Assembly (NCBI GenBank): GCA_029263395.1
Contig: JAJCXO010000036.1
Span: 1,638-65,637 of the forward strand
Direction of reading: 5' to 3'
DNA: 64,000 bases
Origin: Acidobacteriota bacterium
Lineage (GTDB): Bacteria; Acidobacteriota; Thermoanaerobaculia; Multivoradales; J023
Shown here: in pieces, positions 8,777 through 33,983 of the stretch
Numbering within the stretch: position 1 is the stretch's first letter
Layout: the number at the start of each line of letters is the position of its first letter
The notes under the pieces: generated by a model
Seen by the model: the letters and a program-made list of their open reading frames with translations, nothing else
The model's database searches: none
Told to the model about the DNA's origin: nothing
Made by a program: the position numbers and the translations under genes

Positions 8777-10381
8777 CTAAGAATCCAAGCTCAAGCCCAA
8801 AGCACTCATCCGCAATTTCAAGCCCCGCCGCGATACCCCGAGGATTTCGACCATCGCGTCGAGGGCCCCGCTCGCGCTCCGAATCGCGTCGACGATCTCG
8901 TCGCGGCTCAGGTCCGCGGCCTTGCGCACCTGCCGACTCTCGTCGATCCGCCGGTAGAGAGAGGAACGGGAGACGCCGAGAGAGGCGGCCGCGAGCGTGA
9001 TGTTCTGGCCGTGCTCGGAAAGCGCGGTGAGGAGCTCTTCCTCACCGATCTCAGTCACTGCGCGATAGCTCGTTTGCTCGGGCTTGGTAACCGCATCATC
9101 AGAGGAACCGCTGGGATCCCTCGATAAACTCAGTAGCCCCTCGATCGCGGGCGTCAGCTGCAACTCTTCCTGCTCCAGACTAGCGACCAGCAATCTGCGG
9201 GCGACGGCACGGAGTTGGCGCACGTTCCCGGGCCACGGGTAGCCAACCAGTCGGGCGACGATCTCAGCCGGCACGGCCGGCGCCTCGTACCTCGCTACTC
9301 CCCGTTGGGACTTGTTTGCCGAATCGAGCGCTTCTGAGAGGAAGTGGAAGAAGAGACGACCGATGTCGTCGCGCCGTTCACGGAGCGGCGGCAGCTTGAT
9401 CTCATACTCGGAGATCCGATGGAAGAGGGGTGCTCGGAACTCGTCGCTCTCGACGGCTCCTTCGAGATCGAGATCGGTCGCGGTGATCAAGCGGACGTCG
9501 ACGCTCACCTGCTCGGCAGCGCCGACCGGTTGGATCTGCCCGTTGTCGATCGCGCGCAGCAACTGAACCTGGACATCAGGCGCCGTCTCCCCAATCTCAT
9601 CAAGGAAGAGCGTGCCACCATCAGCTCTCTGGAAGTAGCCTCGACGTTGCTTGTCTGCACTCGTGAAAGCGCCTCGGGTCGCCCCGAACAGCTCCGACGC
9701 GGCAAGGTTGGAAGGGACAGCGGCGGCATTGACGCACACATAAGGCTGTCGACTTCTCGGCCCAGCCTGGTGCAGGGCGCGGGCTACCAACTCCTTGCCG
9801 GTCCCGGTCTCGCCACGCAGGAGGACCGTGAAGTCGAGCTCTGCCAGGCGCTCGATCTCCTGGCGCAAGCGGAGCATCGGGGAACTCTCGCCGATGAACC
9901 CGAAATCCCCGGGACGGCTGGTGAGGGGCAACAGCGAGTGCAGCAAAAGCGCGCTACTTTGCCCGAGCACGAGGACGACCCCACCCTCGAGATCGACCAA
10001 TGAAAACTCGCGGGAGCGCGTCAGGGAACGGCCGTCGACCTCGACGGCCGAGGCTGTGGCACTGAGGGAAGCGCGCACTCCACCGTCAGCTGTGGCGCTG
10101 AACTCGACCATCGGGCGGCGGCTGACGTAGGGATCGGCCAGGGGCCGCGGCGTGCCACCCGCCGGTTGCGCGAAATAGGGCTCTCCGCGCGACAGCGACT
10201 CACGCCCCCCAGCCACCAGCCCGGTGAGGGACGCGACCTCGCCGACGCGACGCGGATCCGGGTGACAGAGGACCGTCAGGCTGGGGACGCCGATACCGCC
10301 GATCCGGCTCCGGACGTTTGGCGCGGCACGCGTCGTGGCCTCTAGGTCGTCGCGCCAGGTTTGATCATCTTCAGGCATCAC
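8777..10381 (-). CDS. sigma-54-dependent transcriptional activator (bEBP) with an N-terminal FHA-like domain and C-terminal Fis-type HTH
   Basis: AAA+ motifs are present: LLRGETGTGKELVARALH, a GAFTSA loop (variant of GAFTGA), GGTLFLDEIG and RLITATDLDL. The N-terminus is FHA-like (ADPYVSRRPMVEF...VEVDGRSL). The C-terminus is HTH-like (ITLAAASLGVSRSSLYRRI and LGVSRRGLKLRMSALGL). Confidence 0.85.
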   Translation of the reverse strand: MMPEDDQTWRDDLEATTRAAPNVRSRIGGIGVPSLTVLCHPDPRRVGEVASLTGLVAGGRESLSRGEPYFAQPAGGTPRPLADPYVSRRPMVEFSATADGGVRASLSATASAVEVDGRSLTRSREFSLVDLEGGVVLVLGQSSALLLHSLLPLTSRPGDFGFIGESSPMLRLRQEIERLAELDFTVLLRGETGTGKELVARALHQAGPRSRQPYVCVNAAAVPSNLAASELFGATRGAFTSADKQRRGYFQRADGGTLFLDEIGETAPDVQVQLLRAIDNGQIQPVGAAEQVSVDVRLITATDLDLEGAVESDEFRAPLFHRISEYEIKLPPLRERRDDIGRLFFHFLSEALDSANKSQRGVARYEAPAVPAEIVARLVGYPWPGNVRQLRAVARRLLVASLEQEELQLTPAIEGLLSLSRDPSGSSDDAVTKPEQTSYRAVTEIGEEELLTALSEHGQNITLAAASLGVSRSSLYRRIDESRQVRKAADLSRDEIVDAIRSASGALDAMVEILGVSRRGLKLRMSALGLSLDS

Positions 10382-10617: not shown

Positions 10618-11835
10618 ATGCATGAAGCAAGCCCGAAGTGTGCCCACAAACTGCCCCTGATACTACTCTTTGCCCTTTGCTTCGTAGGTACCCTCGACGC
10701 GGACCCACCCCTCGACGCGGACCTTGACCTCGATTGCGCCGGTGCCATTTCCATCCCCTTGGGCGATCCGTATACCGATGAGCTCGGCGGTGACGGCCGG
10801 TCGACCTGCTATCGGCTGCAAGTCGACGCCTCGGGCGTCCTGCTTGCCTCCGTCGACTCCCACCCGGCGGCGACGAAGCTGCGCCTGCGCGACGATCTCA
10901 GTTCTGCCCGTGCCACCATCCTGCCCGGGACTGACCTCGGCCATCACCTCATCCTGCGGGTCCGCGAGCCCGGTTCCCTGGTCTTCGAGGTGGCTCCCCA
11001 GGACGCCCGGCAGGGCTTCGCAGGGCTCGTCTTTACCAACCGGTTCGTCGCCGAGGTGGACGCTGTCGAGCTGGATCTAAAGGATGCTAGGCCGCCGACC
11101 TTCACCAAGGAAGGCGACGAGATCGATCCAGTACTACTCACCATCCTCGATCCGCCGCTCACCTGCGTCACCAAGGAAGGCGACGAGATTGATCCAGTCC
11201 TGCTCATCGACCTCGCGCCGCCGGTCGTCTTTGAAACCAAGGAGGGTGACGAGATCGATCAAGTGCTGCTCACCGACCCCTCGCCGGCACCTTGCGTCGC
11301 CAAGGAAGACGACGAGTTTGATCCGGTTTTGTTCAGCGTGCGGCGAAGCGACCTAAACTTGCGGGCCGTACGCTCTGGTCTACTGCTGTTTGCCTCGGGA
11401 GGCGCCGCCCTCGTCCAGGCTGGCGACGAGTTCGTGCTGCGCGCGGAAACCGGAGACTCCAGGGTTCGCTTCTACGACGTCTGCGACTCCCATCCCACGG
11501 ATGACCACGCCGACTTCTTCGCCTGTGCCTCCCCGTTGGGAGCCAAGGGCAGCCTGCTCGGCGAGCTCGACGGCGGTTGGCCCTACGACTACGACGTCTT
11601 CACCTTCTGGCTCGGCGATCGACGGGCGGTGATCTTCGAAACCGGCGGCGAGGTCGCCACGGCCGGCGCCCTTTACGATCGACGAGGTCAACGACTCGCG
11701 CTCCCGGAGATCGCCGGCGACATTCCGTTCCGCTTCGTCCGCAACCTGGCCCCGGGGCGCTACTTCGTGCGCGTCTCTGGACGAGACGGAGCACCAGGCC
11801 GCTACACGGTGAGCTTCACGACGTCCGCCTGGTAG
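10618..11835 (+). CDS. secreted protein with two PPC-like beta-sandwich regions flanking four TKEGDEIDPVLL repeats
   Basis: Signal peptide KLPLILLFALCFVGTLDA. The four repeats are TKEGDEIDPVLLTILDPP, TKEGDEIDPVLLIDLAPP, TKEGDEIDQVLLTDPSP and AKEDDEFDPVLFS. The C-terminal end, YFVRVSGRDGAPGRYTVSFT, resembles a pre-peptidase C-terminal domain. Confidence 0.6.
   Translation: MHEASPKCAHKLPLILLFALCFVGTLDADPPLDADLDLDCAGAISIPLGDPYTDELGGDGRSTCYRLQVDASGVLLASVDSHPAATKLRLRDDLSSARATILPGTDLGHHLILRVREPGSLVFEVAPQDARQGFAGLVFTNRFVAEVDAVELDLKDARPPTFTKEGDEIDPVLLTILDPPLTCVTKEGDEIDPVLLIDLAPPVVFETKEGDEIDQVLLTDPSPAPCVAKEDDEFDPVLFSVRRSDLNLRAVRSGLLLFASGGAALVQAGDEFVLRAETGDSRVRFYDVCDSHPTDDHADFFACASPLGAKGSLLGELDGGWPYDYDVFTFWLGDRRAVIFETGGEVATAGALYDRRGQRLALPEIAGDIPFRFVRNLAPGRYFVRVSGRDGAPGRYTVSFTTSAW
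11098..11340 (+). repeat. in-frame tandem repeat, about 66 bp x 4 (22-aa units)
   Basis: ACCAAGGAAGGCGACGAGAT(C/T)GATCCAGT recurs at 11104, 11170 and 11236. A diverged copy lies at 11299. Confidence 0.85.
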
Positions 11836-29529: not shown

Positions 29530-29566
29530 CTCGGCACCACATAAGTTGCAACAACCTGGTGCCGAG
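29530..29566. terminator. 10-bp perfect-stem hairpin downstream of the permease gene
   Basis: CTCGGCACCA-N17-TGGTGCCGAG lies about 75 nt past the stop at 29640 (minus strand). No U-tract follows, so it may be a terminator or another structure. Confidence 0.3.
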
Positions 29567-29639
29567 CAACTTCCGGACGATCCGGATCATGGCGGCTTAT
29601 CTGGAAGGTCGGTTGTTAACGGGCGACTGAGCGGTCGAA

Positions 29640-32048
29640 TCACCCGTCGCGCAGCGCAACAATCGGGTCGACGTGGGCAGCGCGACGAGCCGGCAGGTAA
29701 CAGGCAGCGGCAGCGGCCACCAGCAGCACGATGACAACACCGATGAAGGTCACCGGATCGGTGGGTGCCACGCCGAAGAGGCTCGCGGCGAGGTAACGGG
29801 TGAGGCCCAAGGAAGCTCCCATGCCGAGCACAACGCCAATGGCTGCCAACTTCATCCCCCAGCTCATCACCAATCCGACAACACCCCAACGGCGCGCCCC
29901 GAGCGCCATGCGGATCCCCATTTCATGACTCCGCTGGGCGGTGGAATAGCTCATCACTCCGTAGATACCGATGGCTGCCAACACCATGGCGAGGGTGGCG
30001 AAGCCGCTCAATAGTTGGGTTGCCAGGCGACGTTGGCCAACCGAGCCGGCGACCACCGCTTCGAGGGTGCGCACCGCGGACAGGGCTTGTTCGGGATCGA
30101 TCGCCTGCACCTCTCGGCGGACCACCTCGATCAGAGTCTCGGGATCGGTTTTGGAACGCACCACCACTCGCATCGATGACTGGGTGTTTTGCGCAAACGG
30201 TACGTAGGTCGCCGCACGGTAGGCTTCGCCGAGCTGACGATGGCGAACGTTACCCACCACGCCCACGATCTCTTGGAGACCCTCGCTGTTCCACTGAAAA
30301 TCGATACGCTGGCCGATCGGGCTGCGGTTCGGGAAGTACAGGCGGGCAAATCCTTCGTCGACGATCGCTACGGCCTGGGCCTCGGCGCGGTCGTCGGCGT
30401 CGAAGAAGCGTCCCGCAATCAACGGGATGTCGAGGGCTCTGAAGTAGTCGGCTGAAACCCGACGTTTCTCGGCGTGTGGCGCCCCGTCTTCCGGCCAGGT
30501 CAGCCCTTCGACGGCGAAGCCGCCGCTGGGACCATCGGTCAGGGGTGGCGTGTTGGTGATCGCCGTGCTTTCGACGCCTGGCAGGGTCTCGAGTCGACCG
30601 AGCAACTGATCAAAAAAGGCCACTTGCTGGTCGGCCTGAGGGTACTTCACCTCCGGCAGATAGAGACGAAAGGTCAGGACCTGTGCGGGTTCGAAGCCAA
30701 GCTCTTGATCCATCAGGCCCTTGAAACTGCGGACCAACAGACCGGCGCCGATCAGCAGCATCAACGACAAGGCCACCTCTGCGACCACCAAAGCGTCTCG
30801 GGTACGATGACGGCTGAGACCGCCGGCTTGACGACCGGCTTCGCGGCAGGTCTCCGCCAGTCGCCCGGCGGTCGCCTGTAAGGCTGGCGCGAAGCCAAAA
30901 AGCACCGCCGTCATCAAACTGAGCCCCAAGGCAAATACCAGGACTCTCGGGTCGAGAGTGAACATCTCGGGCCGCGGCAGATCATCGAGGCGGGCAGCCG
31001 CCAGAGCTCGCAAGCTCCACCAGCTTGCGAGGACTCCTAATCCACCCGCCGCCAAGGCCAGTAACAAGCTCTCAGTTCCAAGCTGTCGGATCAGCCGCCA
31101 GCGACTGGCGCCGATCGCCATCCGGACGGCAATCTCGCGACGCCGCGAGGCGGCACGGGCAAGCAGCAGGTTGGCGACATTGGCACAGCCGATCAATAAC
31201 ACCAGGCCCATGGTGCCGAAGAGCATCAGGAGGGGCGACTTCGCGTCCCGGGTCAACACCTCGGAGAGCGCATTCAGCGCGATACCATGCCGTGTTTTAC
31301 CCTCGTCTTGTAGCCGCGCCGCAATCGCTTCGACTTCTCCGGCAGCTCCTGCCAAGGCCAACTCGGGGCGCAATCGACCCAGTACGCTGAGAAAGTGCAG
31401 GCCGCGCGGTGCCCCCTCCTCTTCGAGCCGCAGCGGCAGCCAAACGTGACGCTCAGCGCCAGCGTAAAAGTCTTCCGGTCGACGCGCCGCCTGACCAGCG
31501 GCAAGCACGCCAACCACCTCGACGCTTTCACCGTCGAGGTGCAGGCTACGTCCGATGAGGTCGGGATCACCGCCGAACTGTTGTTGCCATAGGTCGTGGC
31601 TCAGCACCGCCACTCGGGCGGCCCCAGGTGGTTCGTCGTCGACTGCCAGTAGACGGCCGAACGCCGGCCTCAGACCGAGCATAGTCATCACCGACGCCGA
31701 GGTTCGTACCGCATCGAGCCGCTCGGGGGTGGCGTCGCCGGTGAGCGTCACGACGTCATCGAAGTAGGCCCCGAGACCTTCGAAGATCTCACTCTGGTCC
31801 CGCCAGTCGATGAACTCGGGAAAGGAAGCTGGTGCTTCCGCAAGCTGCGATTGGACGTCAACCACCTGCACCAAGCGGTCGACGTCGGGATACGGCAACG
31901 CCTCGAGCAACACCGCGTTGACCAGGCTGAAAATTGCAGTGTTGGCACCGATCCCAACGGCCAGCGTCAAGACCGCAACCAGGGTAAATCCAGGGCGCTT
32001 GGCCAGCGTTCGCAACGCATACGTCACATCCTGCCAAATCGTTTCCAT
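29640..32048 (-). CDS. ADOP-family duplicated MacB/FtsX-type ABC transporter permease
   Basis: The N-terminus [48 protein letters not shown] is the hallmark of this family. The 802 aa contain two FtsX-like halves. Confidence 0.8.
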
Positions 32049-32134
32049 GGTGCCTCCTTGTCGTCTCTAGGGGATTAGACGCTGGTGGGACTACATGGTT
32101 TGCATCGCGGCGGATCCTTTCCTGGCGCCGAGAC

Positions 32135-32373
32135 GATCAAGCAGCGCTATGTGCTTGATCGCATCTGTCCTGGGTTCGATCAAGCAACGCTGTGTGCTTG
32201 ATCGCATCTGTCTTGGTTTTGATCAAGCATACCCTGATGCTTGATCGCATCTGTCTTGGGTTCGATCAAGCAGACCCTGCGATTGATCGGAACTGTCTTG
32301 ATTTAGATCAAGCAAACGCTTGCGTTTGATCGCACCTGTCTCGAGGACGATCAAGCCAGTCGCGCTGGTAGCC
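32135..32373. repeat. tandem array of 43-bp units (5 full units plus 1 degenerate), each with a GATC-capped palindrome
   Basis: Units start at 32135, 32178, 32221, 32264, 32306 and 32349. Each unit is GATCAAGCA-N8-TGCTTGATC followed by a conserved 17-nt linker, GCATCTGTC(C/T)TGG(G/T)TT(C/T). Confidence 0.9.
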
Positions 32374-32378
32374 CAACG

Positions 32379-33983
32379 TTAGCCCAAGTCTTCTCTGAGG
32401 GCCGTCCGGTTGATCTTGCCGCTGCCGGTGCGCGGCAGTTCACCCCGAATCTCGATCCGCGACGGCACGGCATAAACCGACAAACGTTTTGCTGCGCCGC
32501 GCCTCAGGGCGTTGGCGTCAACCCTAGACCCTTCACGCAACAGCACCGCCGCAAAAATCGTCACTTGGCCTTCTTCGTCACGCAGGTCGACTGCGGCAGC
32601 TTCGGCAACGTCGGGCAACGCATTGAGCACAGCTTCCACTTCGTCGAGCTCGACACGATAGCCGCGGACTTTGACTAGGCGATCCCGGCGCCCCAGGAAA
32701 ATCAGATGGCCATCACCACGGTCTCGCACCAGATCGCCGGTGCGGTAGAAGACCTTTTCGAAGTCGGTAAATAGAACCTGGCGAAAGAACGCTTGTTGGT
32801 TGAGATCGGGACGCGCCCAATAGCCGCGCATCATGGTGGGAGCCCGAATCAGCAATTCGCCAGGTTCACCGGGCTCTACCGTGCGGTCCTCGCCATCAAC
32901 GATCAAACCTTCCGCACCGGGCCAGACCGGACCGATCGGGATCGACTGCTCGCGGTCGAAGTCGTCAGGGAGATGGTAGGCGGTACATTGGTTGACCTCG
33001 GCGGGGCCGTAGGAGTTCGAAAAACGAGCGTTCGGCCACAGCTCGGCCAGCCGCGCCAGATGTTTGGGGGCAAAAGGCTCGCCGCCGAAAAGCACCCAAC
33101 GCAGGCTGCTCAGATCACGGTCTTCGATCCCCCCCTGCTCGAGCAGCTGGATCAGCGCCAGCGGGACCGAGTACCAGAAGGTCAGCTGCTCCTGCTCGAT
33201 CAGCTCCGCCAGGCTGCGCGGGAACATGGTGACTTCCTCGGGAATAATCACGGTGGTTGCGCCACACAGCGGGCCGGTGAGGTATTCGAAGGTCGACATG
33301 TCGAAGTGCAACGGCGAGTGGTTGCCGAGTCGATCCGTAGGCATCACGCCGTACTCGCGGGCTGACAGCCGGGCATACGCAAGACCGCTGGCGTGAGTGT
33401 GCATCAATCCCTTGGGCACTCCGGTCGAACCCGAGGTATACATGATGTACGCCAGGTCTTGTTCGACCAGCTGGACCGCGGGGTCGACTCGCTGCACGGG
33501 GTCGACTCGCTGCACGGCCTCGACTACCGCATCGACGGCCTGCCAGGCAGTAAACGAGATCTTCGATTCGGCGGCAACGTTGGTGGGCGCGTCTGCTCCA
33601 ATGACATGTTGGAGCTCCGGCACATCCACCGCCACCCGGGCCACCTTACGGGCGTGCGACGGGTCGGTGATGAGATGCCGAATGCCACAGTCTTCGACGA
33701 TGAACTGCACCCGCGCCGGCGGTGCGGTCGGATCGATCGGTACGTAGGCAGCCCCTGCCTTGAGGATGCCATAAAGCGCCACCGGCAGCTCGAGGCATTT
33801 GTTCATGTAGATGCCGACGCGGTCGTGGGGGGCCACCCCCTGCTCTACCAGCACGTTGGCCAGGCGGTTGGCACGGTCCACCAGTTCGGCATAACTCAGG
33901 CTGCATCGCGCAAAACGGAACGCCTCGCGCTCAGGGTTGCGGTCTGCCGCCTCGTCGATCGAGTGATGGAGCAGAAAGCCCAC
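32379..33983 (-). CDS. stand-alone amino-acid adenylation enzyme (AMP-binding, DltA-like)
   Basis: A-domain core motifs are present: YIMYTSGSTGVPKG, NSYGPAEV, YRTGDLV, GRRDRLVKVRGYRVELDEVE and GSGKINR. Confidence 0.8.
   Translation of the reverse strand: MGFLLHHSIDEAADRNPEREAFRFARCSLSYAELVDRANRLANVLVEQGVAPHDRVGIYMNKCLELPVALYGILKAGAAYVPIDPTAPPARVQFIVEDCGIRHLITDPSHARKVARVAVDVPELQHVIGADAPTNVAAESKISFTAWQAVDAVVEAVQRVDPVQRVDPAVQLVEQDLAYIMYTSGSTGVPKGLMHTHASGLAYARLSAREYGVMPTDRLGNHSPLHFDMSTFEYLTGPLCGATTVIIPEEVTMFPRSLAELIEQEQLTFWYSVPLALIQLLEQGGIEDRDLSSLRWVLFGGEPFAPKHLARLAELWPNARFSNSYGPAEVNQCTAYHLPDDFDREQSIPIGPVWPGAEGLIVDGEDRTVEPGEPGELLIRAPTMMRGYWARPDLNQQAFFRQVLFTDFEKVFYRTGDLVRDRGDGHLIFLGRRDRLVKVRGYRVELDEVEAVLNALPDVAEAAAVDLRDEEGQVTIFAAVLLREGSRVDANALRRGAAKRLSVYAVPSRIEIRGELPRTGSGKINRTALREDLG

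Follow-up and report, generated by a model that had tools for sequence, protein, structure and literature searches.

Comparison with related loci and with the source metagenome indicates that the tandem array of 43-bp palindromic units at positions 32135-32373 of the window, the whole 64-kb stretch of DNA analyzed here, is a member of a rare, lineage-specific, low-copy family of palindromic minisatellites. Two points go beyond the initial annotation: on the same comparisons, the array marks an edge of a 2.75-kb insertion, and the source sample contains one or more additional arrays of the family. As to function, the explanation ranked first, held tentatively and judged somewhat short of an even chance, is a hairpin minisatellite resembling REP/BIME-2 elements that would act as an insulator in the 3′-UTR or intercistronic spacer.

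The initial annotation described a tandem array of 43-bp units with GATC-capped inverted repeats, lying between the stop codon of an A-domain gene (32379) and the start codon of an ADOP permease gene (32048), both on the minus strand. Tandem Repeats Finder and parsing of the units bear out the structure, and the location is as described. The array consists of five units of 43 or 42 bp and a decayed sixth, each full unit carrying a GATC-capped inverted repeat of 9-10 bp (Table 1). Tandem Repeats Finder reports a period of 43 over 32134-32356 (5.2 copies, 80% matches, score 237). The same program also detects a super-period of 85 bp (score 265) and, weakly, a sub-period of 22 bp. The successive periods of 43, 43, 43, 42 and 43 bp average 42.8 bp, which with 10.5 bp to the helical turn amounts to 4.08 turns, in agreement with the approximately four proposed earlier. 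A search signature for the unit would be CGATCAAGCA-N6-8-TGCTTGATCG or the 18-nt core TGCTTGATCGNANCTGTC. Within the 64-kb window the pattern GATCAAGCA-N8-TGCTTGATC has four matches, all within the array, where shuffled sequences lead one to expect 0.05; the linker, allowing up to two mismatches, has three matches in the window, every one of them inside the array.

Table 1. Array units and neighboring features (dG in kcal/mol)
Feature	Position	Strand	Description	Hairpin dG or other evidence
Unit 1	32135-32177		GATCAAGCA-gcgctatg-TGCTTGATC + linker GCATCTGTCCTGGGTTC	DNA hairpin -9.4
Unit 2	32178-32220		loop acgctgtg, linker GCATCTGTCTTGGTTTT	DNA hairpin -9.5
Unit 3	32221-32263		loop taccctga, T-A pair lengthens stem, consensus linker	DNA hairpin -9.2
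Unit 4 (42 bp)	32264-32305		right arm CGATTGATC, inner stem GCAG/CTGC, 2-nt bulge, linker GGAACTGTCTTGATTTA	DNA hairpin -7.5 (z -5.0)
Unit 5	32306-32348		right arm CGTTTGATC, inner stem GCAA/TTGC, 2-nt bulge, linker GCACCTGTCTCGAGGAC	DNA hairpin -6.3 (z -2.6)
Unit 6 (decayed)	32349-32378		begins GATCAAGCC, reaches A-domain stop codon	no hairpin beyond chance
Stand-alone adenylation (AMP-binding) gene	32379-33983	-		L013 homology stops at 32386
Permease leader, non-repeat	32049-32134	-	86 nt, strong Shine-Dalgarno AAGGAGG
ADOP-family duplicated MacB/FtsX-type permease gene	29640-32048	-	802 aa, cargo of the block	TIGR03434, 941 bits
Carrier-protein (PP-binding) gene, 3′ remnant	29554-29630	+	frame ...LVPSNFRTIRIMAAYLE..., TGA at 29628-29630
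Inserted block	29631-32378	-	about 2.75 kb, between two once-convergent stop codons

The array differs from its surroundings in composition, with a G+C content of 50% compared with 61% for the window, and the gap that holds it contains no open reading frame of note. Because the period is 43 bp, the unit repeats cannot stay in frame. The linker is directional and keeps one orientation throughout, so that the units are arranged head to tail. As a tandem non-coding unit of between 10 and 100 bp, the array falls within the usual definition of a minisatellite or VNTR. A CRISPR array was considered and rejected, as the variable parts are just 8 nt at a 43-bp period and there are no spacers of repeat-like length. 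Among the Rfam covariance models, the best match to the array reached 19.7 bits (gathering score 90) at an E-value of 0.5.

Each of the five full units is predicted to form DNA or RNA hairpins far more stable than those of shuffled controls, and a 351-nt sense-strand RNA that includes the array has a predicted dG of -127 kcal/mol (z = -4.8). In units 1-3 the arms are perfect over 9-10 bp. In units 4 and 5 the right arm has the same derived sequence, CGWTTGATC, and pairing is regained via an inner stem of 4 bp with a bulge of 2 nt; both units fold better than shuffled sequences, which upholds the earlier proposal that dyad symmetry has been kept as the units diverged. The base pair next to GCA/TGC, the tenth of the stem, is T-A in unit 3, G-C in unit 4, and A-T in unit 5, a suggestive case of possible covariation that involves one position and is not significant (p about 0.1).

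Conservation is distributed unevenly within the unit. Compared pairwise, the units diverge by 7% over the arms, where 2 of 18 columns are variable, by 27% over the linker (9 of 17 columns), and by 39% over the loops (8 of 8 columns; Fisher p = 0.0004 for the column counts). The linker, taken by the initial annotation to be conserved as a whole, is so in its first 9 nt (GnAnCTGTC), which are near-invariant with 2 of 9 columns varying; the claim does not extend to the last 8 nt, where 7 of 8 columns vary (p = 0.015). The column variation thus yields a unit pattern of 9 conserved, 8 variable, 18 conserved, and 8 variable positions. This pattern indicates constraint on the arms and on the proximal half of the linker, and none on the loop or the distal linker. 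A further regularity is found in the GATC sites, of which 11 are counted in the array, as had been estimated. With one more at 32113 they form an unbroken lattice of 21-22-bp spacing that is the sole such run in the window. A reading of these sites in terms of Dam methylation or restriction-modification was set aside, the frequency of GATC in the window being at its Markov expectation (ratio 1.03), so that neither restriction avoidance nor enrichment is apparent. Likewise, the possibility of a further unit, a "unit 0" at 32092-32134, was rejected: the GGATCC at 32113 aligns with AGATTC of the leader of the related permease locus L017 and is therefore ancestral leader sequence, not a decayed unit.

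The comparison drew on loci of both flanking genes in six other genomes: L013-L016, which contain homologues of the adenylation gene, and L017-L020, which contain orthologues of the permease. In L013 and L014, the closest relative, whose A-domain protein is 81% identical to that of the window, the adenylation gene is followed by a convergent 93-aa PP-binding gene, and the two stop codons are 7 nt apart. In the window, the blocks of homology to L013 end at 32386 and at 29605, about 2.78 kb apart; positions 29554-29605 are identical to L013 at 49 of 52 sites and correspond to the last ~17 codons of the carrier-protein gene, the remainder of which is gone. From 32110 to 29639 the sequence is collinear with the L017 permease locus (protein 85% identical), a stretch that begins 62 nt before the start codon and extends through the stop codon. 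Homology of the permease leader to the region upstream of the L017 orthologue runs out to about 32110-32125, with the similarity weaker in the part nearest 32125. The array, together with about 10 nt on either side, is the sole stretch of the ~2.75-kb block without a homologue. These alignments indicate that an ADOP permease block is inserted between formerly convergent adenylation and carrier-protein genes and that the array is at the upstream edge of this block. The final 6-9 nt of the leader (CGAGAC) look like a partial linker.

Neither set of relatives has a comparable array. Genes for the proteins most similar to the adenylation protein (77-81% identity) are found in the same NRPS/dehydrogenase/adenylation synteny and have neither permease nor array downstream, while the permease orthologues (57-85% identity) have a different neighborhood in each of four other genomes and no tandem repeat upstream. 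None of the loci L013-L020 has an array at the corresponding position, and scans of all retrieved relative loci by regular expression and Tandem Repeats Finder returned no match to the unit. These neighborhoods suggest that the permease moves about as a compact block of one gene. The orthologues in L017-L020 are solitary, with neighbors that include TrkA channel/CorA, S8 peptidase/urocanase, glyoxalase/PIN, and Lhr helicase genes.

The insertion also bears on the stand-alone adenylation enzyme, which is preceded by an acyl-CoA dehydrogenase homologue. The carrier-protein gene kept by its relatives is destroyed in the window genome, and since that gene is truncated, the enzyme has lost its neighboring carrier protein. 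In L013, L014, and L016 the 93-aa PP-binding gene is intact and is followed by a HupE_UreJ_2 gene. On the other side of the junction, the stop codon of the adenylation gene falls within the first of two copies of TTGGGCTA that are 11 bp apart on the minus strand (CTTGGGCTAACGTTGGGCTACC; 32379-32400), and the C terminus of the protein is about 5 residues shorter than in the 81% identical relative.

Other tandem repeats occur in the loci compared. A perfect 15-bp repeat of 4.7 copies (CCGTCTGGAGTCAGA) is found at 8547-8616 of L017, just 3′ of the permease orthologue and within a 58-aa open reading frame; a 30-bp repeat of 2.3-2.4 copies is found near the divergent NRPS/dehydrogenase starts in L013 (2695-2782) and L014 (934-1021). 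In the window itself, a 66-bp repeat of 3.4 copies (11102-11324) lies inside a 405-aa open reading frame (10618-11835) that has no Pfam match.

The source run, X1, is a biofilm metagenome with a 925-Mb assembly and holds 92% of the sampled words of the window. Its Logan unitigs match 31800-32154, 32183-32274, and 32245-33508 with zero mismatches and at the depth of the flanks. The concern of the initial annotation that the repeat number might be an assembly artefact is thus answered by exact unitigs over most of the locus; it persists at the join of units 1 and 2, which is spanned solely by a 73-nt unitig with 2 mismatches, and because of this weak coverage the copy number could err by about one unit. 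In the carrier-protein remnant, a 45-nt unitig over 29571-29615 has a depth of 26 compared with about 8 on its flanks, so that this short, conserved stretch is common to other genomes of the source sample.

A dispersed REP-like element present at hundreds of intergenic sites was the outcome that the initial annotation regarded as fatal to its proposal, and the metagenome does not bear it out. Unitig depth over the array in X1 is 5-8, equal to that of the single-copy flanks, and no more than 9 contigs of the 925-Mb assembly match any part of the array with a likeness of 80% or above; both observations argue against a high-copy element, and they point to a few loci, not hundreds. A second array is found at the end of one of these nine, a 2867-nt X1 contig with a depth of 7.45, the organism's own depth. 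It passes from unique sequence through AGA directly into CGATCAAGCA, followed by the loop TCAACCG, an arm-linker-arm segment that differs at 5 of 35 positions, and the loop ACAGTCCG. A separate 61-nt unitig holds two consecutive units with the loop GATCCTGA.

The family extends to other samples as well. Run X4 is without the window flanks yet contains a 73-nt unitig identical to units 1-2 at 71 of 73 positions. In the marine run X3, fragments of the adenylation gene (92-95% identity) occur alongside a 151-nt contig of three or more units, in which GATCAAGCA and a GnAnCnGTC half-linker are kept while loops and distal linkers differ. Variant unitigs occur in runs X1, X2, and X4, on contigs too short for unit counts. 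Structural variation in run X2 was considered and rejected: the missing stretches are coverage gaps in the same strain at about 3x depth.

Broader searches found no further members. The pattern GATCAAGCN{11,12}TTGATCGNANCNGTC gave four single matches in GTDB representative genomes and seven in JGI metagenome contigs, all attributable to chance, as they lie in unrelated, apparently coding DNA without tandem structure. The junction pattern had no match in viral contigs, blastn of the array against 72,556 plasmids and 50,697 phages returned no match, and pseudo-open reading frames encoded by the array had no relatives in protein collections.

How such an array might function is suggested by the change in gene order that came with the insertion. 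In the relatives the adenylation operon ends against a convergent gene, whereas in the window the adenylation operon and the permease are both on the minus strand. As the two are co-directional after the insertion, the array would be at once the 3′ UTR of the adenylation operon and the spacer before the permease. In the tentatively preferred explanation, each 43-bp unit comprises a hairpin-forming palindrome of 26-28 nt and a 17-nt linker, and the array would have grown through tandem duplication, partly in two-unit (86-bp) steps, with its outermost units now decaying. In a read-through transcript, the five or six stable stem-loops would block 3′-to-5′ decay of the upstream message and would attenuate transcription entering the inserted permease gene, insulating the two transcription units from each other. 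Transcription through the array is inferred, as are its attenuating and stabilizing effects. U-tracts are missing behind the hairpins on the sense (minus) strand, terminator-like matches being found on the antisense strand alone, and the array shows no strand-specific G-U signal. If the array works in this way, a home-grown hairpin array outside the Proteobacteria would buffer a newly inserted gene from the operon upstream of it.

Elements that might direct transcription at the locus were also sought. A promoter scan found no sigma-70-like promoter in 31800-32600. A gene for a sigma-54-dependent activator (Sigma54_activat + HTH_8) is present on the minus strand at 8777-10381, 22 kb from the array, and no convincing -24/-12 element was found in the array or leader. 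Readings of the unit as a sigma-54, ECF, FNR, IHF, DnaA-box, or dif site were rejected by eye, their spacing or key bases being a misfit. The idea of a PadR operator (AGCA-N8-TGCT) was rejected as well, since the window lacks a PadR gene and the promoters of the orthologous permeases lack the array.

Three features find no explanation in an RNA-level insulator: a non-palindromic linker of which half is conserved, a period kept strictly at 42-43 bp, and the regular 21-22-bp spacing of the GATC sites. They are accounted for if the array is instead a helically phased docking array on double-stranded DNA. On that account, a less probable but real contender, a dimeric or oligomerizing protein would bind the GATCAAGCA and TGCTTGATC-GnAnCTGTC blocks, which, recurring every ~21.5 bp in units of 42.8 bp, would place all sites on one face of the helix, just upstream of the permease leader; the role of the putative protein would be to regulate the permease promoter or to serve as an architectural element or an insulator. 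It is consistent with a period that is held even in the diverged units, although a period inherited via recent tandem duplication requires no selection. It would also explain why 12 GATC sites share a spacing unique in the window, why conserved and variable segments alternate, with a conserved non-palindromic half-linker that is superfluous to a hairpin model, and why the pattern of arm and half-linker recurs in the marine variant despite different loops. A conserved 77-86-nt permease leader adjoins the array; however, the absence of the array upstream of permease orthologues means that it is no ancestral control region. No candidate binder is at hand, nor is there a regulator next to the array in the window. 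A PadR partner is usual for ADOP genes, and it too is absent from the window. Moreover, the half-site centers lie ~17 bp apart within the palindrome, an awkward distance for a classical helix-turn-helix dimer. Were such docking to occur, the locus would be a compact, well delimited test substrate of five sites with natural variants. A broader form of the same idea is more doubtful still: the array might be the local member of an undescribed, phylum-wide Acidobacteriota class of phased palindrome docking tracks that insulate genes at insertion junctions, with locus-specific palindromes set on a two- or four-turn lattice, at this locus 12 GATC-centered blocks every 21.5 bp, and bound by a putative self-associating DNA-binding protein. 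Between the specific and the phylum-wide docking proposals in likelihood stands the possibility, itself unlikely but also a real contender, that the array has no function at all. A palindromic stretch could have come in with the permease gene, or have been generated when illegitimate recombination inserted that gene, and then been amplified by replication slippage, its arms kept alike by intra-array conversion and hairpin-templated correction, leaving a young minisatellite of unstable DNA. The array is placed exactly at the rearrangement junction and is missing from all related loci examined, its edge units are decayed, the 86-bp super-period indicates block duplication, variant arrays occur in co-occurring strains, and there is neither an associated gene nor a database match, all of which fit. 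The difficulty lies in the pattern of conservation, for the arms are conserved over at least three arrays or lineages with unrelated loops, whole-unit conversion would homogenize the entire unit and not parts of it, and units 4 and 5 have restored hairpin potential by different pairings.

Two further explanations tie the array to DNA mobility or segregation. In tyrosine-recombinase core sites, a pair of binding arms encloses a variable spacer of 6-8 bp, and the 10-8-10-bp palindromes of the array, with conserved arms that flank a variable 8-bp center, recall these sites or the subterminal hairpins used by IS200/RAYT-type enzymes. The array could then be a scar or substrate of the permease cassette's move, a very improbable account despite the position of the array at one end of the inserted block, the different neighborhood of the permease orthologue in every genome examined, and the AGA that immediately precedes CGATCAAGCA at both known array starts. 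The other end of the block (29631-29640) has no matching site, there is no target-site duplication and no recombinase or transposase in the window, a 43-bp separation is too close for recombination between sites, and orthologues elsewhere are without such a site. Least likely is a partition centromere bound by a ParB-type protein, suggested in the initial annotation by resemblance to F sopC. That resemblance holds for the format, direct 43-bp repeats each with an inverted repeat, and goes no further. In accordance with the annotation's own remark that ParA and ParB are missing, a Pfam scan of plausible genes of at least 200 aa in the 64-kb window detected no ParA/CbiA, ParBc, or Rep domains; without a ParA, ParB, Rep, or transposase gene in the window a sopC-like centromere is unsupported. 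The gene content (NRPS, glycosyltransferase, PPDK, TonB-dependent receptor) is chromosomal in type, the array matches none of the plasmids or phages searched, at least one further array exists, and the array occupies an operon-like spacer at a gene-insertion junction that has no counterpart at the orthologous loci of relatives.

Several known systems provide points of reference for the array. In the F sopC centromere, which comprises 12 repeats of 43 bp, SopB binds a 16-bp inverted repeat within every copy (PMC3177203). The array agrees with it in period, in the presence of an inverted repeat inside every direct repeat, and in spanning about four helical turns per unit, but it is chromosomal, lacks par genes and any sequence similarity, and its arms of 9-10 bp around an 8-bp variable center differ from the compact 7-2-7 site of sopC. 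Mycobacterial MIRUs resemble the array as tandem units of 40-100 bp that are intercistronic, present at several loci per genome, lineage-specific, and decayed at the edges. MIRUs are non-palindromic and often contain small overlapping open reading frames, whereas the unit of the array is a hairpin with a period that cannot be in frame. Two-turn arrays are known in the tandem ARG boxes of ArgR and in plasmid iterons with a 22-bp period, and here, too, conserved blocks and GATC sites return at 21-22-bp intervals to the same helical face. The blocks of the array, however, alternate in orientation and differ in content, there is no cognate regulator or Rep, and the array is absent at orthologous promoters.

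The closest comparison is with REP elements and their BIME-2 assemblies, although on the features of the units an assignment to REP in the strict sense fails, given the absent tag, the head-to-tail units, and the apparently few copies. REP palindromes are marked on one side by an unpaired tag, GTAG or CGTC, and head-to-tail dimers are rare in REP families (PMC3733652). The units of the array have no such tag, being flanked by the linker bases TTC, TTT, or TTA, with GACG preceding only units 1 and 6; they run head to tail with one directional linker, in contrast to alternating REP and iREP, and the family appears to have a handful of copies as opposed to hundreds, with no RAYT seen in the window and no sequence similarity. 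What is shared is the architecture of extragenic imperfect palindromes of 20-40 nt in tandem with linkers. In BIME-2 elements the tandem copies at any one locus are closely alike, and their number differs from strain to strain (PMC3333891); the copies of the array are likewise well conserved within one locus, and their number may vary as well. In E. coli, REP325 lies between the co-directional genes yjdM and yjdN and serves as a partial terminator and mRNA stabilizer (bioRxiv 10.64898/2026.03.23.713779). The array also lies between co-directional genes, and partial termination together with mRNA stabilization is the role proposed for it here. If the insulator explanation is true, the concept of non-coding 3′-UTR "dials" developed for REP and BIME elements would extend to the Acidobacteriota.
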